DNA of 64,000 bases from Treponemataceae bacterium. Lineage in GTDB: Bacteria > Spirochaetota > Spirochaetia > Treponematales > Rectinemataceae. Made by a program: the position numbers and the translations under genes. The notes beneath the pieces are model-generated. The model was not told the DNA's origin, did not search any database, and saw only the letters and a list, made by a program, of their open reading frames with translations. Positions 53,263 to 62,224 of this stretch are shown here, in pieces (the stretch's first letter is position 1; the number at the start of each line of letters is the position of its first letter). Location of the stretch: positions 2,304,001-2,368,000 of the forward strand of contig CAXXVZ010000003.1 of NCBI GenBank assembly GCA_963678065.2. The letters run 5' to 3'.

Positions 53263-53587
53263 TTATTCCGTATTTGTGTGTGACATTTCTGCCAGGAGCT
53301 GCTTTACTCGTTCGATTGGGAGAGGAGCTGAGCCTTCAAAATGGTTGTTGACGTTCAGATAGACTTGCTTACCATGGTTCGAAAGCTCGTTGATCATGAC
53401 AGCGATAGAAGGCAGTTGCGATTTGGGCTCGACAATCCGGTTCCATTCTTGCTGTGTGGCTTTCTCGATTTCCATCCGATCACCCCCGAGGAGCCGGATG
53501 ACAACAAGACTGGATAACAGGTGACCGAACTTCCTGTATAAATCGACGATGTGTGGCATGTACTGTTTTTCTGAAAAGACCATCAAG
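53263..53587 (-). pseudogene. DUF72 protein C-terminal remnant
   Basis: IRLLG, VYLNVNNHFEGSAP; 5' part replaced by IS3 DNA. Confidence 0.6.
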
Positions 53588-54115
53588 TGGACTTGCCCGG
53601 GTTTCGTGGAGGCTTGGTTAAGCCACTCTCCTGAGCATCGCTGCGGGTGGCCTGAAGCCGTTTCGTGAGTGGATCCGAAGCCGATTGTAATACACCTCGA
53701 TGTACTCGAACACTGCGGTCCTGACCTTCTTCCGGGTGGTTTTTCCGTCAAGCTCGGGGAGTTCCCTTTTCAGCGTCTTGAAAAAGGACTCCGCGCAGGT
53801 GTTGTCCCCAGCAGTTCCCCTTGCGGCTCATGCTCCTTACGAGTATCGGCATCGTCCCTAGGGAAGCCTCTCGAAAAGCATTGCAGCATTATTGGATGCC
53901 GGGGTCGGAATGGAACAACAGCGGGCCTTTGGGATTCTTCCTGTACACAGCCATCGCGAAGGCATCGATGACAATGGCCGCAGTCATGTCGGTCCTCATG
54001 GACCAGCCCACGACCATCCGTCAAACAGGTCTATGCCCACGCACAGGTAGAGCCAGCCATCGGTGGTCGGGATATACATTATGTCCAACACCCACACCGT
54101 AGTGGGCTCGGCGAC
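53588..54115 (-). mobile_element. Degenerate IS3-family transposase remnant
   Basis: LFHSD.GIQ, GNCWG, ESFFKTLK.E, FEYIEVYYNRLRIHS with frameshifts. Confidence 0.75.
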
Positions 54116-54284
54116 GTCAAGGTATCATATCAAATGACTACATAGTATTTTCTACAGATATACTACGCACCCGTAAATAAATATTTTCATCGTTGACTTT
54201 TGATGAATACTCTGCAAATCATCTTATACGGATCAAGATAAATGCTGTTCGGCGGACGCTCTGCGCAGGGAAGGAAACGAATAA

Positions 54285-54740
54285 ATGAGAGATAAACGAT
54301 TTATAGCAAATCATATGGGCGGTCCATTAAGTTTAGAAAGACATAGGTCATTGATTCATTGGGCTGTTGACTGTGTAAAACATGGAATTGAAATAGCAAA
54401 TGAAAAGGATATTGACGAAAGAGCATTAAATGCTCTGGAAATTGCTGAAAAATGGGAAAAAGGAAATGCTACTGTTGGAGAAGCAAGAGAAGCAGCATTT
54501 GCAGCACATGATGCCGCAAGAGAATGTGAAGATAAGATTAAACAAGCATTAATGCGTGCCTGTGGTCATGCGGTAGCAACAGCTCATATGGCTGATCACT
54601 CATTGCAAGCCAGAAAATATGTATTAAAAGCAGTAAAGCTAACGAATAGGGAAATAGCAAAAGAAATGGAATGGCAAATACAAAGAGCAGATGTAAATAT
54701 TAAAGAATTACTTATAGGAAATGGAAATGAATTATGCTAA
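54285..54740 (+). CDS. Imm5-like putative immunity protein, cassette copy 1
   Basis: WA.DC..H, D.R...A...A..W..G...VGEAR.AA..AH.AAR, RA.GHAVATAHM..H. Confidence 0.7.
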   Translation: MRDKRFIANHMGGPLSLERHRSLIHWAVDCVKHGIEIANEKDIDERALNALEIAEKWEKGNATVGEAREAAFAAHDAARECEDKIKQALMRACGHAVATAHMADHSLQARKYVLKAVKLTNREIAKEMEWQIQRADVNIKELLIGNGNELC

Positions 54741-54750
54741 AGAAGAAGAC

Positions 54751-54877
54751 GCCGAACAATCGCTTCAACCGGACAGCGCCTTTTGTCACGGTTTGTGCTA
54801 CTCGCTTCGCTCGCTTGTGCACAAACCGCGCCAACCCGCTTCGCGGGACAGGCTTGCCGGTTAAGCCAATGTTGCAC
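54751..54877 (+). repeat. attC site 1
   Basis: GCCGAAC...GTT, imperfect palindrome (CTTCAACCGG / CCGGTTAAG with an extra base, GGTTTGTGC / GCACAAACC). Confidence 0.88.
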
Positions 54878-54988
54878 TAAACCGCTGTGCCAGCGGTGGA
54901 GGATTTGCTTTCATTCCTACCTTTTGCGAGGTTCGGGCACATTCATAGACCACGGATACTTCTGGCATCATCACGCCGGAGGTATCCA

Positions 54989-55870
54989 ATGCACTACGAA
55001 CTCGAACTCGAAGCCATGCGCAAAGCGCTGGTCATCCGCAACTACGCCACCAAGACCATCAGCACCTATGTCTCCGTCCTCAAGCGGTACCTTGAACAGC
55101 TTGACAAGCCGATCGCCTGTGTCACATCGGCCGACATCCAGGAGTGGCAGTATCATCTCGTCAATGAAGAAAAAGTATCTTGGTCTCTCTTCAACCAGAT
55201 GGTCTGCGCCCTCAGGTTCTATTTCAAGAACGTGCGCACCTGCGATTTCACGGTCAAACACATTCCGTTCCAGCGCAGACGAAGGCGATTTCCGTCCATA
55301 CTGTCCAAAGAAGAGGTAGCAGCTCTTCTGGAAACCGCGCGGCTGAATCCCAAGCACTATGCGATCATCGCCACGCTGTACTCCACCGGCCTGCGCCTTG
55401 GCGAATTGGTCAAGCTCCAGATACCCGACATCGACAGTACGATGATGCTCGTGCACGTCCGGCAAGGCAAAGGTGGCAAGGATCGGCATGTCCAGCTCAG
55501 TTCCCACCTCCTCGGGATATTGCGGGCCTATTATCGCTCGTGCCTCGTCAAGCCGAAAACCTGGCTCTTCCCGGGTGCCAAGAACGATGGCCCGCTGGAT
55601 CCGAGTGGTATCCAGAGGATGGTTCCCGCTATCGCACGAAAAGCCGGAATCGAGAAGCATATCTCGCCGCACACGCTCCGGCATTGCTTCGCAACCCACC
55701 TGCTCGAAGACCACACCGACCTGCGCACCATCCAGTCCATGCTCGGTCACAGCTCCATCCAGACGACGGAAGTGTACCTGCACGTGGCGACGCATCATCT
55801 CCAGAGTGTCCGCAACCCCCTCGACCATCTCCCGGCACCAGGTGTGCACTCCGCGGGAAAGCCCCGATGA
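54989..55870 (+). CDS. XerD/integron-related tyrosine recombinase
   Basis: RNYA.KT..TY N-terminal domain, YSTGLRLGE, GKGGKDR, HTLRHCFATHLLE, LGHSSIQTT..Y; GGAGG RBS. Confidence 0.92.
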   Translation: MHYELELEAMRKALVIRNYATKTISTYVSVLKRYLEQLDKPIACVTSADIQEWQYHLVNEEKVSWSLFNQMVCALRFYFKNVRTCDFTVKHIPFQRRRRRFPSILSKEEVAALLETARLNPKHYAIIATLYSTGLRLGELVKLQIPDIDSTMMLVHVRQGKGGKDRHVQLSSHLLGILRAYYRSCLVKPKTWLFPGAKNDGPLDPSGIQRMVPAIARKAGIEKHISPHTLRHCFATHLLEDHTDLRTIQSMLGHSSIQTTEVYLHVATHHLQSVRNPLDHLPAPGVHSAGKPR

Positions 55871-57075
55871 GCGCACTAGGCGACATAGCGCGGCGGGGGA
55901 TGGCGCTCTCCTGGCTCACCGGTCAGGAACGGAGCGTCCTCTCTCACATAGCCGACTGCAAGACGGAGCGACTCGGAGGGAATGTTCTTTCGTGCGAGTG
56001 CGGGCACCGCGAGGTTCACTACAATTCCTGTCGTGACCGGCATTGCCCGCTCTGCCAGGGTGCCGCGTGTGCGCGCTGGGTGCGCGCGCGCCTTGGCGAA
56101 CTCTTACCCTGCGGGTACTTCCATGTGGTCTTCACGGTCCCCCACGAACTGCACTACCTTGCCCTTTCCAACCGCCACGCATTCTACCGGGCGCTCTTCC
56201 TCTCGGTCCACGAAACCCTTAAGGATGTCTGCGCCAATCCCGCCAACCTCGGTGCCCGCGTGGGCGGCATGTCCATCCTCCACACCTGGAACCAGAAGCT
56301 CGCTTTCCACCCGCACATCCATTGTATCGTACCCACAGGAGGTATTTCGTCCGACTTCTCGCGCTGGATAGCGGGGAACCCCACCTACCTCGTTTCGGTC
56401 AAGCGCCTGTCAGCGGTGTTTCGCGGCAAACTCCTGAGCCGTCTTGAGCAGTCCATCGGCAGACATGACCTGTGCGGCGACGAATCGGCGCTCCGCGATG
56501 CGGTGTGCGCTGCCGCTCGCAAGGACTTCGTCGTCTATGCCAAGCCACCCTTCGGTGGTCCCGGCCAGGTGGTCAAATACTTGGGCCGCTACACGCATCG
56601 CGTCGGCATCAGCGAACCCCGCATCGTCTGTGTCACTCAGGAGAGAGTGAGTTTTTCGTGGATCGACCGCGCCGCGGGGCATGCGAGACGAGTGATGAGC
56701 CTGTCCTGTGACGAGTTCATCCGAAAGTTCACCCTGCACATCCTGCCCAAAGGACTGCGGAAGATCCGCTATTTCGGCTTCATGGGGAACCGGGACCGGA
56801 CCGCTTCCCTTGTCCGCGTGCGTGCGCTCATCGCATCCTCGTCCGATTCACTCCCGAACCGGCCTGAAACCGACGAATTCCCGGCACACGGGAGCGCGAT
56901 GGAGGCTCCCCGCGTCGAACCGTGCGCCGTTTCCCGCTGCCCGCGATGCGGACTGCCTCTGAGCATTCACCATCCGATCGGGGTGTCGTCATCGGGGTCG
57001 CACTGGCTCACATCGCGGCTTGCGTTCCTGCGGGAAGTCCATGGACCGGAACCGAACAGGGCGGTGTTTGCCTGA
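55867..57075 (+). CDS. IS91-family (Y2 HUH) rolling-circle transposase
   Basis: Zn finger (CECG, NSCRDRHCP.CQ), YFHVVFTVP, HPHIHCIV (HUH), YLGRYTHR, GLRKIRYFG. Confidence 0.93.
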   Translation: MSALGDIARRGMALSWLTGQERSVLSHIADCKTERLGGNVLSCECGHREVHYNSCRDRHCPLCQGAACARWVRARLGELLPCGYFHVVFTVPHELHYLALSNRHAFYRALFLSVHETLKDVCANPANLGARVGGMSILHTWNQKLAFHPHIHCIVPTGGISSDFSRWIAGNPTYLVSVKRLSAVFRGKLLSRLEQSIGRHDLCGDESALRDAVCAAARKDFVVYAKPPFGGPGQVVKYLGRYTHRVGISEPRIVCVTQERVSFSWIDRAAGHARRVMSLSCDEFIRKFTLHILPKGLRKIRYFGFMGNRDRTASLVRVRALIASSSDSLPNRPETDEFPAHGSAMEAPRVEPCAVSRCPRCGLPLSIHHPIGVSSSGSHWLTSRLAFLREVHGPEPNRAVFA

Positions 57076-57368
57076 ACGAGGGGTGTGACTCCTGAGTCCG
57101 AATTTCACCGAACATCCGCCCATTGTGCCTGTATTCCCTTCATCCCCTCACAATTCCCGGCAGGTAAAAACTGCTCTGAATACGGCATTGCCCATGATCA
57201 CGCTTACGGATAAAAATCGTACTGCCGTGTACATGCCCGTTAATAAAAAAAATCGTCCCGTTACGCGCGTCTCCTCTCATTTCCCGCCTTGTAGTACCGA
57301 GAAACCCCGGATTGTTCTTCAATTTGATGTGAAGACTTGATACAGTACCCATAGGGGACGACGGTTCA

Positions 57369-57478
57369 GTGCAACACGTTCTATCCTGCAGAATCGAATT
57401 CTCGGTGTGCCACCCTCCTTCAGTACATCGAGAGTCGGTTGTCGCGCGATTCCGCAGGATAGAATGCTAATGTTCGGC
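57369..57478 (+). repeat. attC-like hairpin at the right end of the recombinase/IS91 element
   Basis: GTGCAAC...TTCTATCCTGCAGAATCG / CGATTCCGCAGGATAGAA...GTT; sequence unrelated to attC1-3. Confidence 0.7.
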
Positions 57479-57509
57479 GGACGCTCTGCGCAGGGAAGGA
57501 AACGAATAA

Positions 57510-57965
57510 ATGAGAGATAAACGATTTATAGCAAATCATATGGGCGGTCCATTAAGTTTAGAAAGACATAGGTCATTGATTCATTGGGCTGTTGACTGTG
57601 TAAAACATGGAATTGAAATAGCAAATGAAAAGGATATTGACGAAAGAGCATTAAATGCTCTGGAAATTGCTGAAAAATGGGAAAAAGGAAATGCTACTGT
57701 TGGAGAAGCAAGAGAAGCAGCATTTGCAGCACATGATGCCGCAAGAGAATGTGAAGATAAGATTAAACAAGCATTAATGCGTGCCTGTGGTCATGCGGTA
57801 GCAACAGCTCATATGGCTGATCACTCATTGCAAGCCAGAAAATATGTATTAAAAGCAGTAAAGCTAACGAATAGGGAAATAGCAAAAGAAATGGAATGGC
57901 AAATACAAAGAGCAGATGTAAATATTAAAGAATTACTTATAGGAAATGGAAATGAATTATGTTAA
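57510..57965 (+). CDS. Imm5-like putative immunity protein, cassette copy 2
   Basis: Protein identical to 54285-54740. Confidence 0.7.
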   Translation: MRDKRFIANHMGGPLSLERHRSLIHWAVDCVKHGIEIANEKDIDERALNALEIAEKWEKGNATVGEAREAAFAAHDAARECEDKIKQALMRACGHAVATAHMADHSLQARKYVLKAVKLTNREIAKEMEWQIQRADVNIKELLIGNGNELC

Positions 57966-57975
57966 AGAAGAAGAC

Positions 57976-58102
57976 TCCGAACAATCGCTTCAACCGGACA
58001 GCGCCTTTTGTCACGGTTTGTGCTACTCGCTTCGCTCGCTTGCGCACAAACCGCGCCAACCCGCTTCGCGGGACAGGCTTGCCGGTTAAGCAAATGTTAG
58101 GA
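57976..58102 (+). repeat. attC site 2
   Basis: Near-identical to attC1; ends GTTAGGA, complementary to TCCTAAC at 62219. Confidence 0.88.
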
Positions 58103-59414
58103 TTATTAAAGATTGGTAGGTAAGAGATGAAGTTTCATATTATAGATTCTATTTCTGGTATTGACAGAGATTCTGTAAACGAGTGTTTTTTAGTAGTTGA
58201 TAACTGGGATGATTGGTTTGAATTTTCAACAATGTACCGGCTATATTTTGTAACAATCTCAAATACAATAAAAGAAATTGGCTTTGTAAAAATTGGCCAA
58301 TTTTTAATGAAAGAGGGACAGCGTAGACCATTATTAAATAGGGATTTTGAAAATTTAGAAGATAACTATTTTTCTGTTGGTCAAGATGAGAAATATTATG
58401 AAAACATTAGATCGCTTGATGAGCATTTTAGAATAGAGATATTAAGTATCTTAAATGATTTTGCATTTAGTAATGAGATGTTTCAAAAAGCACTTGGTGA
58501 AAAGGTTACAAGAGTATCGCTACTTAGGTCAGTTTCCGAAAAGACAATAAGTGAACAGTTTAGAAGAATCCTTCTTGGTGGTGCAGCACAGACTTCATTC
58601 AACTTTTCATATTCATCTCCAATGTATTTTAAAAATCCATCATCAAAAATTAATTTGACCTTTAACGTTAATCCTGATTCAAGTCCTCCATCAAATATTC
58701 ATGTCCTAATTGGAAGGAATGGTGTAGGGAAAACAACTCTTTTATCTAATATGGCAAATGCTGCTTTAAATTCTGATGATGGAAAATATGGGAGCTTTTC
58801 ATCATCAAGCACTGACGAAAGAGTATCACAATTTTCTGGATTGATTACTGTCTCATATAGCGCATTTGATGATTTCACTGTTTCAAAGGAGAAACGAGAC
58901 AATACGAATTCTTTGAGATACTCATATATTGGATTAAAAGAAATTAAAAAGGTTAACGGTATTGAAATAAGAAAGAATAAATCAATGGAATCAATTGACA
59001 GTGAATTCGCACGTAGTCTGTTTTCTTGTGTTTTTACAGTTAAGAAAGAAATATGGATAAGTATTATTGCAAAATTAAAATATGACCCTATATTTTCTGA
59101 AGCAAATGTTACTGAACTATCAAATTACTCAGATAAAGAAACTTTTAAAAAGAATGCAATAGTGTTATTTAAAAAATTAAGTTCTGGGCATAAGATAGTA
59201 TTATTAACATTAACTAAATTAATAGAGTTAATTGAAGAAAAATCTTTAGTTTTAATTGATGAACCAGAAGCGCATTTGCACCCGCCACTATTGTCAGCAT
59301 ATATTAGAACGTTATCAGAGTTGTTAAAATACAAAAATGCAGTTGCGATTATAGCTACGCATTCACCGATTATTTTGCAAGAAGTTGCTTCCGATTGCGC
59401 ATGGGTGCTTTATA

Positions 59415-61141
59415 CCTGAATTCCCATGAATTTATACCCCAAGAGGAACGGGAACGTCTAACTTCGTAAATAGCTCAGTTTGTTTCTTAGTGATTTCACC
59501 GATTTGAAGTCTACGACCAGGATGGCCAAAACATTCAATCACATCGAGTTCATCAAGAAGTTCGTGTAACGTATAGTCCTTATATAGATTCTGTTCATCC
59601 ATCATCTTATCGATGTATGAGAGATACATAAGCGCGATGAATTGGACAAAGAGCTTGCCCTCGAGGTTTTCTTCTGAAGACACCGATGTTCTGCGCAGGT
59701 TAAGCCGCTCTTTGAGATTTCCGAAAGCCTTTTCAATCAGATCCTTAGATCGATAAATTCTAAGCGCTTCCAAAGGATCCTTTATGTCATTCGATATGAG
59801 AGCAAAATAGCCGTAGTTTTTTTCAGCTTCGTCGATTGAAGATTGAATTGGTGTTACCTGCATGCCGCGAACAGGCGTTGCAGCGTACTCGAAATATTTC
59901 CGATAGAGCTTTTCATGTTCAGGATCAAGTTTTCCGGAATACAGTTCCGTTTCAAGCGTGTCTAAAAGGGTATTGAACGCAGCCTTATCATCCACTGCCC
60001 GTTGGTCATTGAAGAACAGATGGAGATACAGCCTCCTTGATCCTTCATCCAGATCCCCTGAACGAGGTTTTCGATGATGGTATGACCATTCGATAGTCCG
60101 TGAGTATGTATTGATCCTGTACCGGCTTGAGTAACAGGCTCTCGTGCGCATAGACATTCGAACATCATCAAGGACATCCTGAATCAACCGTAAGTGCTTT
60201 GGAACTGCTATCAGGAACTTATAGTGATGATGGTACAGGGTGTTGATATTCTCTTCGCTGTAGAACCCTCGATCCAAAACCAACTTGACTTTGCCCAGCT
60301 TGAGAAGATCAATGTCAGTAAGGAGCGTACGAATCGTCGTGACATCGGCGATGTTACCGGGCAATGTACGATAATAAACCGGTAGTCTTGAAGTATCACC
60401 GTAGAGCATCGCCAAATTGATTTGGGGTAAAGGATCATGATCCTTATTCCTGCCATAGCGAACCTGGGAAAGCAGTCGAGAATACGAAGAAATAGAAGTG
60501 ATATCGTAGGCAAGATATTCAGTCTCGAGTCTTCGATTTGCCTGCTTGAGAAAAAACCGTCGCCTGGCGTCCTCATCAATACAGGCGAATAACTCGCTGG
60601 ACCTTTGGGAGGGTATCGAGTTCCCATAGGGGTGCGCATGATGTACAGCCCATCGCGGGAAACGGCTTATGGAGTTCCTGTCTTCCAGAATCAAAAAGTA
60701 TGCAATAGAGAGTATCTGTTTCCAGAGATCAGGAAAACAAACACAGAGATCACCAGTTATCCCCAGCTTTTCTCCGATTGCATCAAACAGATAGGTTGCT
60801 CCGAAAAAGTTTCGGGTATGAAGCACCGAAGAAACAGGGCCAGGAGAAATTGACGTTGCCCGCTCGAGTGCTTGCTGAAGTTGGTAGTTTTTAGTGGGAA
60901 CAAAGATACCATCTACCATTTTCCCGATGTAGTGTCTTTTGTGCGTGTTGTAGTTCTTTTCAGCGATTCGCTTTGAATCATATTCGTAAACATATTCAAC
61001 ACCATGGATGACTTGTGTTCCTTGTGGCATACAATCCTCCATGGGGTATATATTATACCCCATTTAGATTGCTGTCACCAATTATTTACTGTAATTACAA
61101 TGCTTTATTGAATTGTGGGTATAAATTCCCGGGAATCCAGG
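59415..61141 (-). mobile_element. IS1634-type (IS4 superfamily) insertion sequence
   Basis: IRs CCTGAATTCCCATGAATTTATACCC / CCTGGATTCCCGGGAATTTATACCC; 6-bp TSD TTTATA. Confidence 0.9.
59432..61042 (-). CDS. IS1634-family DDE transposase
   Basis: YDITSISSY, YG.NKD..LPQIN, PGNI.D, DRGFYS, YR.K..IEKAF..LK. Confidence 0.88.
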   Translation of the reverse strand: MEDCMPQGTQVIHGVEYVYEYDSKRIAEKNYNTHKRHYIGKMVDGIFVPTKNYQLQQALERATSISPGPVSSVLHTRNFFGATYLFDAIGEKLGITGDLCVCFPDLWKQILSIAYFLILEDRNSISRFPRWAVHHAHPYGNSIPSQRSSELFACIDEDARRRFFLKQANRRLETEYLAYDITSISSYSRLLSQVRYGRNKDHDPLPQINLAMLYGDTSRLPVYYRTLPGNIADVTTIRTLLTDIDLLKLGKVKLVLDRGFYSEENINTLYHHHYKFLIAVPKHLRLIQDVLDDVRMSMRTRACYSSRYRINTYSRTIEWSYHHRKPRSGDLDEGSRRLYLHLFFNDQRAVDDKAAFNTLLDTLETELYSGKLDPEHEKLYRKYFEYAATPVRGMQVTPIQSSIDEAEKNYGYFALISNDIKDPLEALRIYRSKDLIEKAFGNLKERLNLRRTSVSSEENLEGKLFVQFIALMYLSYIDKMMDEQNLYKDYTLHELLDELDVIECFGHPGRRLQIGEITKKQTELFTKLDVPVPLGV

Positions 61142-61384
61142 TTTATAGATCAGGAACAAATTGTAGCGTATCAAGACCAAATATAGAGAGTTTTGGTGAA
61201 AATGTTGGAATACTAACTCGAGAAGTATTTACACTTGAAATAACTAATACTGGATACCATAAATTACTGAATGATCTAATAAATGAAGGCTTAACAGAAG
61301 TAGATATCAATTCAAAATTTAAAAATAATATTAGCATTTCTGCCCGTGCATTAATAAAGAATTTAATATTTGAAAGAGATAAAA

Positions 61385-62224
61385 ATGTATAAGATTGAGA
61401 ATTATTACAATAACCAATCAGCAATATGTAACGATTGTTTAAAAAGTATTTCAAATATAGATCTTAAAGAAAGATTTTCAAAAGCAATTCCAGCCATTAT
61501 AGAAAGTTCGTATGCTTACAAAGAAGAAGCAGAAAATAAAAGACTGTACAAATATAAAGCAAATAATCTTGAAGTAAATGGAATTAAAGGAGATGAATTA
61601 ATTTCATTATATAAACACAAAATGGTACCTCGTTCATCAACTGCAAGAATGCATTATGATCAAATAATGTTATCAGCAAATAATATGAAATGTCCTTATT
61701 GCGGTGTACGTACAGTAACTACCCTTGATCATTATCTTCCTAAAAGTGATTATCCTGATTTATCTATCTTAGCAATTAACCTTATTCCATGTTGTAAAGA
61801 CTGTAATTTTAATAAAAGAAGTAATATTCTTAGCGATATCTTACAAGCCTACTTGCATCCATACTTCGAAGATGTTTCCCAAGTGGATTGGTTGTCTGTT
61901 GAGGTTTATGAAGAAGATCCTATAATTTTAATATATAATATTGACAAAAAAGTAATTAGTGATACGATTCTATATGATCGTCTTATTTACGAGTTTAATG
62001 AGCTGCAGTTATTTAAGCTATACCAAGTATATGCAATAAATGAAATATCAGAGATGACTCATTATTTTAAAGAAATAAAAGAAAAGCAAGGAGCAAAAGT
62101 TCTTTCAAAGTATTTATTAGAAATTTCTAATAGTATCAAGCTTCAAAAGACACATTGGAGATATGCTTTGTATAAATCACTTAGTGATAGTAAATGGTTC
62201 TGTGAAATATATATAAAATCCTAA
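61385..62224 (+). CDS. HNH endonuclease (PtuB-like)
   Basis: CPYCG, TLDHYLPKS.YP, NLIPCC..CN..K, LHPYF; overlaps the ATPase stop. Confidence 0.85.
   Translation: MYKIENYYNNQSAICNDCLKSISNIDLKERFSKAIPAIIESSYAYKEEAENKRLYKYKANNLEVNGIKGDELISLYKHKMVPRSSTARMHYDQIMLSANNMKCPYCGVRTVTTLDHYLPKSDYPDLSILAINLIPCCKDCNFNKRSNILSDILQAYLHPYFEDVSQVDWLSVEVYEEDPIILIYNIDKKVISDTILYDRLIYEFNELQLFKLYQVYAINEISEMTHYFKEIKEKQGAKVLSKYLLEISNSIKLQKTHWRYALYKSLSDSKWFCEIYIKS

Follow-up and report, generated by a model that had tools for sequence, protein, structure and literature searches.

A recombinase-bearing IS91-family element with predicted folding ends at integron crossover points in a Treponemataceae bacterium

An integron cassette array in the genome of a Treponemataceae bacterium (GCA_963678065.2) contains an element of 2.6 kb in which a tyrosine recombinase gene is coupled to the gene of a transposase of the IS91 family of insertion sequences (IS). 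The element was analysed within a window of 64,000 nt (contig CAXXVZ010000003.1, positions 2,304,001-2,368,000, forward strand), and plain coordinates below are those of this window. Judged from its sequence, the element is a real, recently duplicated member of a known but unstudied IS91 subgroup, that of ISAzo26. We consider it probable that it travels as a single-stranded circle with a predicted attC-shaped folded joint, which its own recombinase would insert at the crossover points of others. The copies lie at integron points, and the element combines a rolling-circle enzyme with a recombinase like that of integrons and with ends that are predicted to fold; it is therefore likely to insert itself in the manner of a cassette.

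The left crossover of the element (G54871/T54872, the slash marking the crossover point) is the attC crossover of the preceding cassette, here termed X (Table 1), and this attC folds well on its bottom strand (z -4.8). The genome holds three copies of the element, which are 98.9% identical; both ends are common to all of them and every flank is different. Copies A and B lie directly behind an attC and copy C lies behind an attI, its flank being identical at 20/20 nt to the attI beside an intact IntI. The element is oriented as the cassettes are. Among the kin at ~68% transposase identity, this genome included, all 11 readable left ends lie at an integron G/TT (ten at an attC, one of them damaged, and one at an attI), and the right ends of the same set likewise finish at G/TT before a cassette (11/11); the four genomes that provided these ends are related, so the ends do not count as independent. 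The first element copy occupies array position 1 or 2 in 5/5 arrays with a readable attI. The original prediction, made from the letters of the window, had described a 2.6-kb unit at 54871..57478 that starts exactly at an attC G/TT. The unit and its start were borne out, while the bounds from crossover to crossover were corrected to 54872-57472. It had also called the unit GC-rich, which is true against the AT-rich cassettes but not against the genome contigs, which have 58-62% GC. The two further copies, the repeat of cassette X described below and the intact IntI elsewhere on the contig had not been part of it.

Table 1. Features of the element and its array, in window coordinates
Feature	Position	Strand	Description	Basis
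attI-like site of the array	54230..54249	+	crossover G54247/T54248; AA-N6-TT spacing	resembles attI beside intact IntI
Cassette X	54248..54871	+	Imm5-like open reading frame (ORF) 54285-54740 and attC 54751-54877	ORF and fold analysis
Left arm	54871..54884	+	provides R' box of upstream attC; pairs 13/14 with right arm	
Element	54872..57472	+	2601 bp between two G/TT crossovers	three copies, identical ends, different flanks
terIS-like layout	54874..54896	+	GNAC, 4 nt, short hairpin (54882-54896); overlaps left arm	same layout in other IS91-family left ends
Tyrosine recombinase	54989..55870	+	293 aa; R136, K161, H228, R231, H254 and Y263 intact; no IntI I2 insertion	PF00589, PF13495
IS91-family Y2 HUH transposase	55867..57075	+	402 aa; Zn-finger cysteines, H148/H150/H152 and Y238/Y242 intact	PF04986, PF14319, NF033538
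oriIS-like motif	57340..57354	+	ends CCCATAG; inside element, 7 nt before right arm	
Right arm	57362..57375	+	inverse of left arm; R''-like box	
Terminal hairpin	57379..57464	+	outer stem conserved (57379-57396 pairing with 57447-57464), loop variable	
Spacer before right crossover	57465..57472	+	4 nt longer than partner strand in predicted folded site	
Cassette X'	57473..58096	+	second copy of cassette X, attC 57976-58102	repeat comparison

The two genes overlap at an ATGA (55867-55870), as had been read from the sequence, and profile matches bear out the identity of both. The transposase scored 361 bits against NF033538 (cut-off 125). Across six element recombinases aligned together with IntI, none of the six catalytic residues of the recombinase varies. 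Against TIGR02249 the recombinase scored 205 bits, below the cut-off of 265, which places it outside IntI; its best solved structural relative is IntI4, than which it is ~40 residues shorter at the position of the I2 insertion. A preprint (bioRxiv 10.1101/542381) describes the recombinases of IS91 as the nearest homologues that IntI has, and as lacking its insertion. Our tree was a quick tree, and long branches meet in it; the placement of IntI is therefore unsure, and we claim neither a donor nor an order. Compared with the relative L007, the recombinase showed a nonsynonymous rate (dN) of 0.15 and a synonymous rate (dS) of 1.25 (dN/dS about 0.12), while the transposase showed a dN of 0.20 and a dS of 1.29. 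Both enzymes are intact, and these values indicate purifying selection on both.

The first bases of the element are the inverse of a sequence near its far end, and the 13/14 match, already part of the original prediction, was reached by 0/300 shuffles. The terIS-like layout begins 2 nt inside the left boundary. In the canonical IS91-family ends compared, terIS consists of a tetranucleotide, ~4 nt and a hairpin, and oriIS abuts the target tetranucleotide. The oriIS-like motif of this copy, however, lies ~120 nt inside the right boundary. A related motif, resembling canonical IS91-family oriIS ends, was found in 67/83 right ends of relatives, where it starts 26-70 nt before the right-arm end and the hairpin lies beyond it. 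An internal origin of this kind would be better suited to replicating a circle than to marking the end of a transposon. The terminal hairpin gave fold z values of -2.2 and -2.7, and its outer stem has no extrahelical base, as had been claimed. The predicted folded site consists of an unbroken stem with a 4-nt one-sided bulge and lacks L''/L' boxes with extrahelical bases. The scanner that finds the resident attC did not detect the end of the element, and blastn gave no match between the terminal hairpin and the resident attC. The hairpin as a captured resident attC was rejected on the absence of this match and on its family-wide occurrence; the hairpin as target DNA was rejected as well, because it travels with the element while the flanks change. 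As side observations, most resident cassettes open on GTT followed after a few bases by a short TTC-loop hairpin (G000:C3 99517-124689 and the right flanks of copies), a layout similar to the terIS-like left end; and in L047, L063, L101 and their kin the left and right ends can, by eye, pair over ~11 further bases that span the whole terIS-like hairpin, possibly a switch between termination and end pairing.

To place this anatomy in its family, 138 transposase loci were gathered from genomes, metagenomes, viral contigs and plasmids. The recombinase gene lies upstream of the transposase gene in 124 of them. The left arm, the right arm and the hairpin are found again throughout the family and do not come from integrons. 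In 42/64 distinct right ends, a stem with 10/11 pairs or more started no further than 7 nt from the right arm, compared with 0/64 shuffled, 2/64 upstream and 1/47 downstream controls. In 47 distinct pairs the arms pair at 523/611 positions, the right arm being subterminal. The original prediction had likened the end to the core and inverse core of a cassette followed by a hairpin; the anatomy stood, but mimicry of attC did not, the hairpin being a feature of the family. Mismatches of the A-C kind outnumber those of the G-T kind by 40:2 in the 47 arm pairs and by 33:4 in 60 distinct stems. Because A-C mismatches on the top strand are G-T wobbles on the bottom strand, these ratios favour folding of the bottom strand, which was also the more stable strand in 33/34 predicted junctions, the sole exception being the copy of the window. 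According to sections of PMC13181058, IS91 inserts only bottom-strand circles, and according to sections of PMC4792948, attC recombines as the bottom strand. On one metagenome contig (L052) the hairpin is joined directly to the left arm. The group is abundant, with 392 plasmid records at E 1e-40 and an estimated 51,000 or so metagenome stretches.

Outside the lineage of the window, only 4/72 left ends passed a scripted attC test, and about 7 did so by eye. A looser fold test had flagged 25/70 left flanks as attC-like; the stricter test was used because the matches of the loose one included many plainly unrelated hairpins. In an analysis that left out L052 and the window lineage, AA stood 6 nt before the crossover in 16/39 distant sites, 7 nt before it in 7 and at each of five other offsets in 0-3, and the microhomology amounted to 1.69 nt compared with 0.46 in shuffled pairs (0/5000 shuffles). 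Matched flank arms were more inverted than mismatched ones only at a spacer of 6 (4.32 vs 3.46, 0/2000). To the right of the crossover the bases mostly start with TT and are otherwise variable, with 22 tetranucleotides in 47 sites; the flank-arm core analysis demanded the same dinucleotide at both ends, and the tetranucleotide count did not. Two identical Rhizobium copies break exactly at N/TT within ATAA-N6-TTAT sites, beside clusters of three recombinase genes, of the kind named RIT. A second Rhizobium element is present in three copies with both ends in common and less site-like targets. No IntI over the cut-off was found on 5/5 plasmid records that carry relatives of the same anatomy, nor in 3/5 element-bearing spirochaete genomes, which are 85-98% complete. 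Relatives adjacent to an attC occur on several branches, and a single clade of them was rejected (p-AU 1e-62, on a 29-row subset chosen after the tree had been seen).

These targets bear on canonical IS91 chemistry, in which the HUH enzyme would cut and join both ends, and the recombinase would only resolve dimers or guide the HUH enzyme to its binding sites. The retained oriIS-like and terIS-like motifs and the intact catalytic tyrosines of the transposase are as this chemistry would have them, and a short core repeated at both ends is also left by HUH insertion. However, the oriIS-like motif is internal, no fixed tetranucleotide follows either the motif or the boundary, the targets show two inverted arms around a 6-nt spacer, and canonical members have no terminal inverted repeats in the account given in parts of PMC13181058. 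We hold this explanation to be quite improbable.

Another explanation is that the host IntI moves the element, the folded end happening to suit it, while the enzymes of the element merely amplify circles or act elsewhere. Intact IntI is encoded in this genome and in genome G424, the crossover lies at G/TT, and the orientation is that of cassettes, with one copy at an attI. In addition, the cassette to the left of the element is repeated on its right (X and X', 625 bp with 4 differences), and this duplication would be most simply explained by IntI excising X' between the hairpin and its attC, which is suggestive. On the other hand, the folded site has a one-sided bulge and no extrahelical bases of the kind that steer IntI, as set out in portions of PMC4792948. 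Elements of this anatomy, with ends just as precise, are also present at non-integron sites and on records that gave no IntI over the cut-off, and the recombinase is under purifying selection. We regard movement by IntI as unlikely. A 625-bp target duplication made by the element itself was rejected, as five other array stretches have no flanking cassette repeat. All 4 differences between X and X' fall within the last 135 of the 625 bp (the end of the ORF and the attC), and this clustering suggests mosaicism or conversion of the attC, not even drift.

The mechanism that we favour would start with the excision of a circle by the recombinase, acting on the left site and on the folded right end. 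Starting at the internal oriIS-like motif, the HUH enzyme would then replicate this circle in rolling-circle fashion, and the bottom-strand circles released would retain the hairpin. The paired arms, a one-sided bulge of 4-5 nt and the stem would together make up a site that, like that of phage CTX, has no extrahelical bases. This site would undergo one strand exchange with a double-stranded site of the AA-N6-TT type, and replication would resolve the product and complete the insertion; in this lineage the insertion point would be the integron G/TT. If the element inserted at attI and IntI then captured cassettes there in the ordinary way, it would come to lie behind an attC even though attC was never targeted. 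As one of the three copies is at an attI, the attC-adjacent copies may have been pushed to their places by such later captures. An attI fits the AA-N6-TT rule, because all five attI sites that were read have N6, whereas a double-stranded attC has N7. The places of the first copies in the arrays and the lack of a copy in the longest array of this genome likewise speak for attI first. For these spirochaete-type integrons we hold attI to be the primary target with slightly greater likelihood than direct attC.

A dedicated attC parasite, whose recombinase would recognise folded attC and to whose copy positions IntI would be irrelevant, differs from the favoured mechanism only in the target. It draws on the ten lineage left ends that follow an attC and on the attC-adjacent relatives on several branches, but its recombinase has no I2 insertion, one copy is at an attI, the longest array has no copy, and the family lies mainly at sites other than attC. 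We rate it as somewhat unlikely. The original prediction had proposed just such a self-mobilising cassette inserting at attC. Its cassette-like anatomy, the G/TT ends of close kin, the intact enzymes, the bottom-strand folding of the family and the presence of like relatives on records that gave no IntI were upheld or speak for it, but its specificity for attC was not upheld. It had further expected homologues to abut an attC on the left and to carry the hairpin on the right: the close-kin ends are all at G/TT and the hairpin is family-wide, whereas distant left ends are mostly at non-attC sites, which is in part the outcome it had named as speaking against it.

Several points weigh against self-insertion as outlined here. 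When the same end dinucleotide was demanded, 13/52 two-ended elements gave no matching core, and the AA-N6-TT pattern is absent from many targets. Kin are among the elements counted, and the ends were called with home-made programs. The attC-adjacent left ends (10/11 in the lineage) are equally compatible with direct targeting of attC. The intact IntI of the genome would cut at the same G/TT, resident recombinases at the target sites could perform the insertion, and for Rhizobium the search for IntI covered plasmid records only. The copies of this genome show no bottom-strand energy bias (-33.9 top vs -33.1 bottom; -36.2 vs -36.2). L052 is one contig of a metagenome, and a tandem arrangement or faulty assembly may account for it. 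For the element itself, the contigs of four runs gave no end-to-start joint, but contigs can show presence and not absence, so the missing circle joint was given no weight. Finally, the hairpin would be lost if the HUH enzyme stopped at the terIS-like left end, and read-through must therefore be assumed.

The surroundings of the element provided some further observations. No intI gene adjoins the attI-like site of the window array (54230-54249), and an intact IntI (451 bits) is encoded elsewhere on the same contig; this genome's long array that is linked to IntI, with 10 attC, has no copy of the element. Both IntI-less arrays adjoin a DUF72-like gene or remnant (window 53263-53751 and G000:C3 867476-868279), that of the window being a weak Pfam match and the second being judged by eye; this suggests related attI-only platforms served by a single IntI. 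The cassette after X' (58127-62224) contains an AAA ATPase gene interrupted by an IS1634 element and an ORF of 284 aa, for which a Pfam search gave no match; the two are possibly a defence pair. In G424, the arrays L180-L183 alternate one cassette, element, one cassette, element, and the first copy stands at position 2 in three IntI-linked arrays. At L001:4291-4780 (G000:C3 about 849290-849780, minus strand), the 5' fragment of a group II intron (RF01999) starts within an attC in the cassette direction. It is fused to the 3' half of a hairpin of the element type, which seems to be what is left of an older, deleted copy. At L005:1850-2010, the attC upstream of the element lacks its 5' part and stands beside a sequence that by eye resembles a group II intron 3' end, with no Rfam match at the gathering score. 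A promoter and terminator scan remained at chance level.

The significance of the family lies in part in the origin of integrons. Sections of PMC4792948 call the origin of IntI and attC a chicken-and-egg paradox and name CTX, which has no integrase of its own, as the only similar reaction. The family supplies the predicted intermediate, with a recombinase that is related to IntI but lacks I2, a folded site free of extrahelical bases and a supply of single-stranded DNA, and the element may resemble the ancestor of integron cassettes. The family would also redefine the ends and the target rule of a very common IS group and would show a route by which IS enter integron arrays without breaking them. 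That the recombinase-bearing IS91 group as a whole consists of widespread autonomous single-strand cassettes, rolling-circle replicons with a self-folded attachment site and a pre-I2 sister enzyme of IntI, parasitising attI, attC and the ends of three-recombinase elements, we put forward as a tentative possibility. Such a class would represent, in complete form, the CTX-like system described as missing by Escudero et al. (2016), and a living model of the cassette ancestor.

The gene pair itself is already catalogued, as the annotation of ISAzo26 shows, and ISfinder counts it as a subgroup of IS91. ISAzo26 (Aromatoleum) and ISShvi3 (Shewanella) have the same layout of recombinase and IS91 transposase genes, and the element belongs to this type by its recombinase gene directly upstream of the transposase gene and by its ends. 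ISAzo26 has 43% transposase identity to the element and the arms, hairpin and N/TT ends in common with it; it is inserted at an AA-N6-TT site of a plasmid that has no IntI, whereas the window lineage was found only at integron crossovers. Passages of one published paper note an attC-adjacent copy of the pair. No description of the folded-end anatomy, the target rule or the mechanism was found in the full-text literature searched, with most subscription journals outside its coverage, and the parts seen of PMC3469429, PMC9345347, PMC11023631 and PMC5737581 hold nothing on the end anatomy.

Like canonical IS91, IS801 and IS1294, the element has a Y2 HUH transposase with a Zn finger, terIS-like and oriIS-like motifs and a coupled upstream ORF, and the canonical group likewise uses a bottom-strand intermediate (parts of PMC13181058). 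However, the identity is about 25-29%, the recombinase replaces orf121, and the element has terminal inverted arms, a hairpin beyond the origin, no boundary oriIS and no fixed target tetranucleotide. With integron cassettes and IntI it has in common G/TT bounds within an array, R''/R'-like pairing, an inner stem and bottom-strand folding, by which it would pass as a cassette; it differs in the lack of extrahelical bases, an arm of 13-14 bp in place of a short R box, the one-sided bulge, the lack of I2 and its own enzymes. Phage CTX and other IMEX, as portrayed in parts of PMC4792948 and PMC9226527, also combine a rolling-circle single-stranded genome with a folded site free of extrahelical bases, and CTX integrates by one strand exchange plus replication. 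CTX, however, uses the host XerCD at dif, whereas the element encodes its own intact recombinase, which sets it apart from IMEX, has no phage genes and has copies at attI and attC. The attC-targeting IS1111 elements and group IIC-attC introns are likewise parasites at integron sites (sections of PMC9229058), but they use other enzymes and interrupt the attC, while the element rebuilds a complete upstream attC and brings its own downstream site. From these comparisons, the element appears to be cassette-like and CTX-like, yet outside canonical attC, IntI and canonical IS91 ends.

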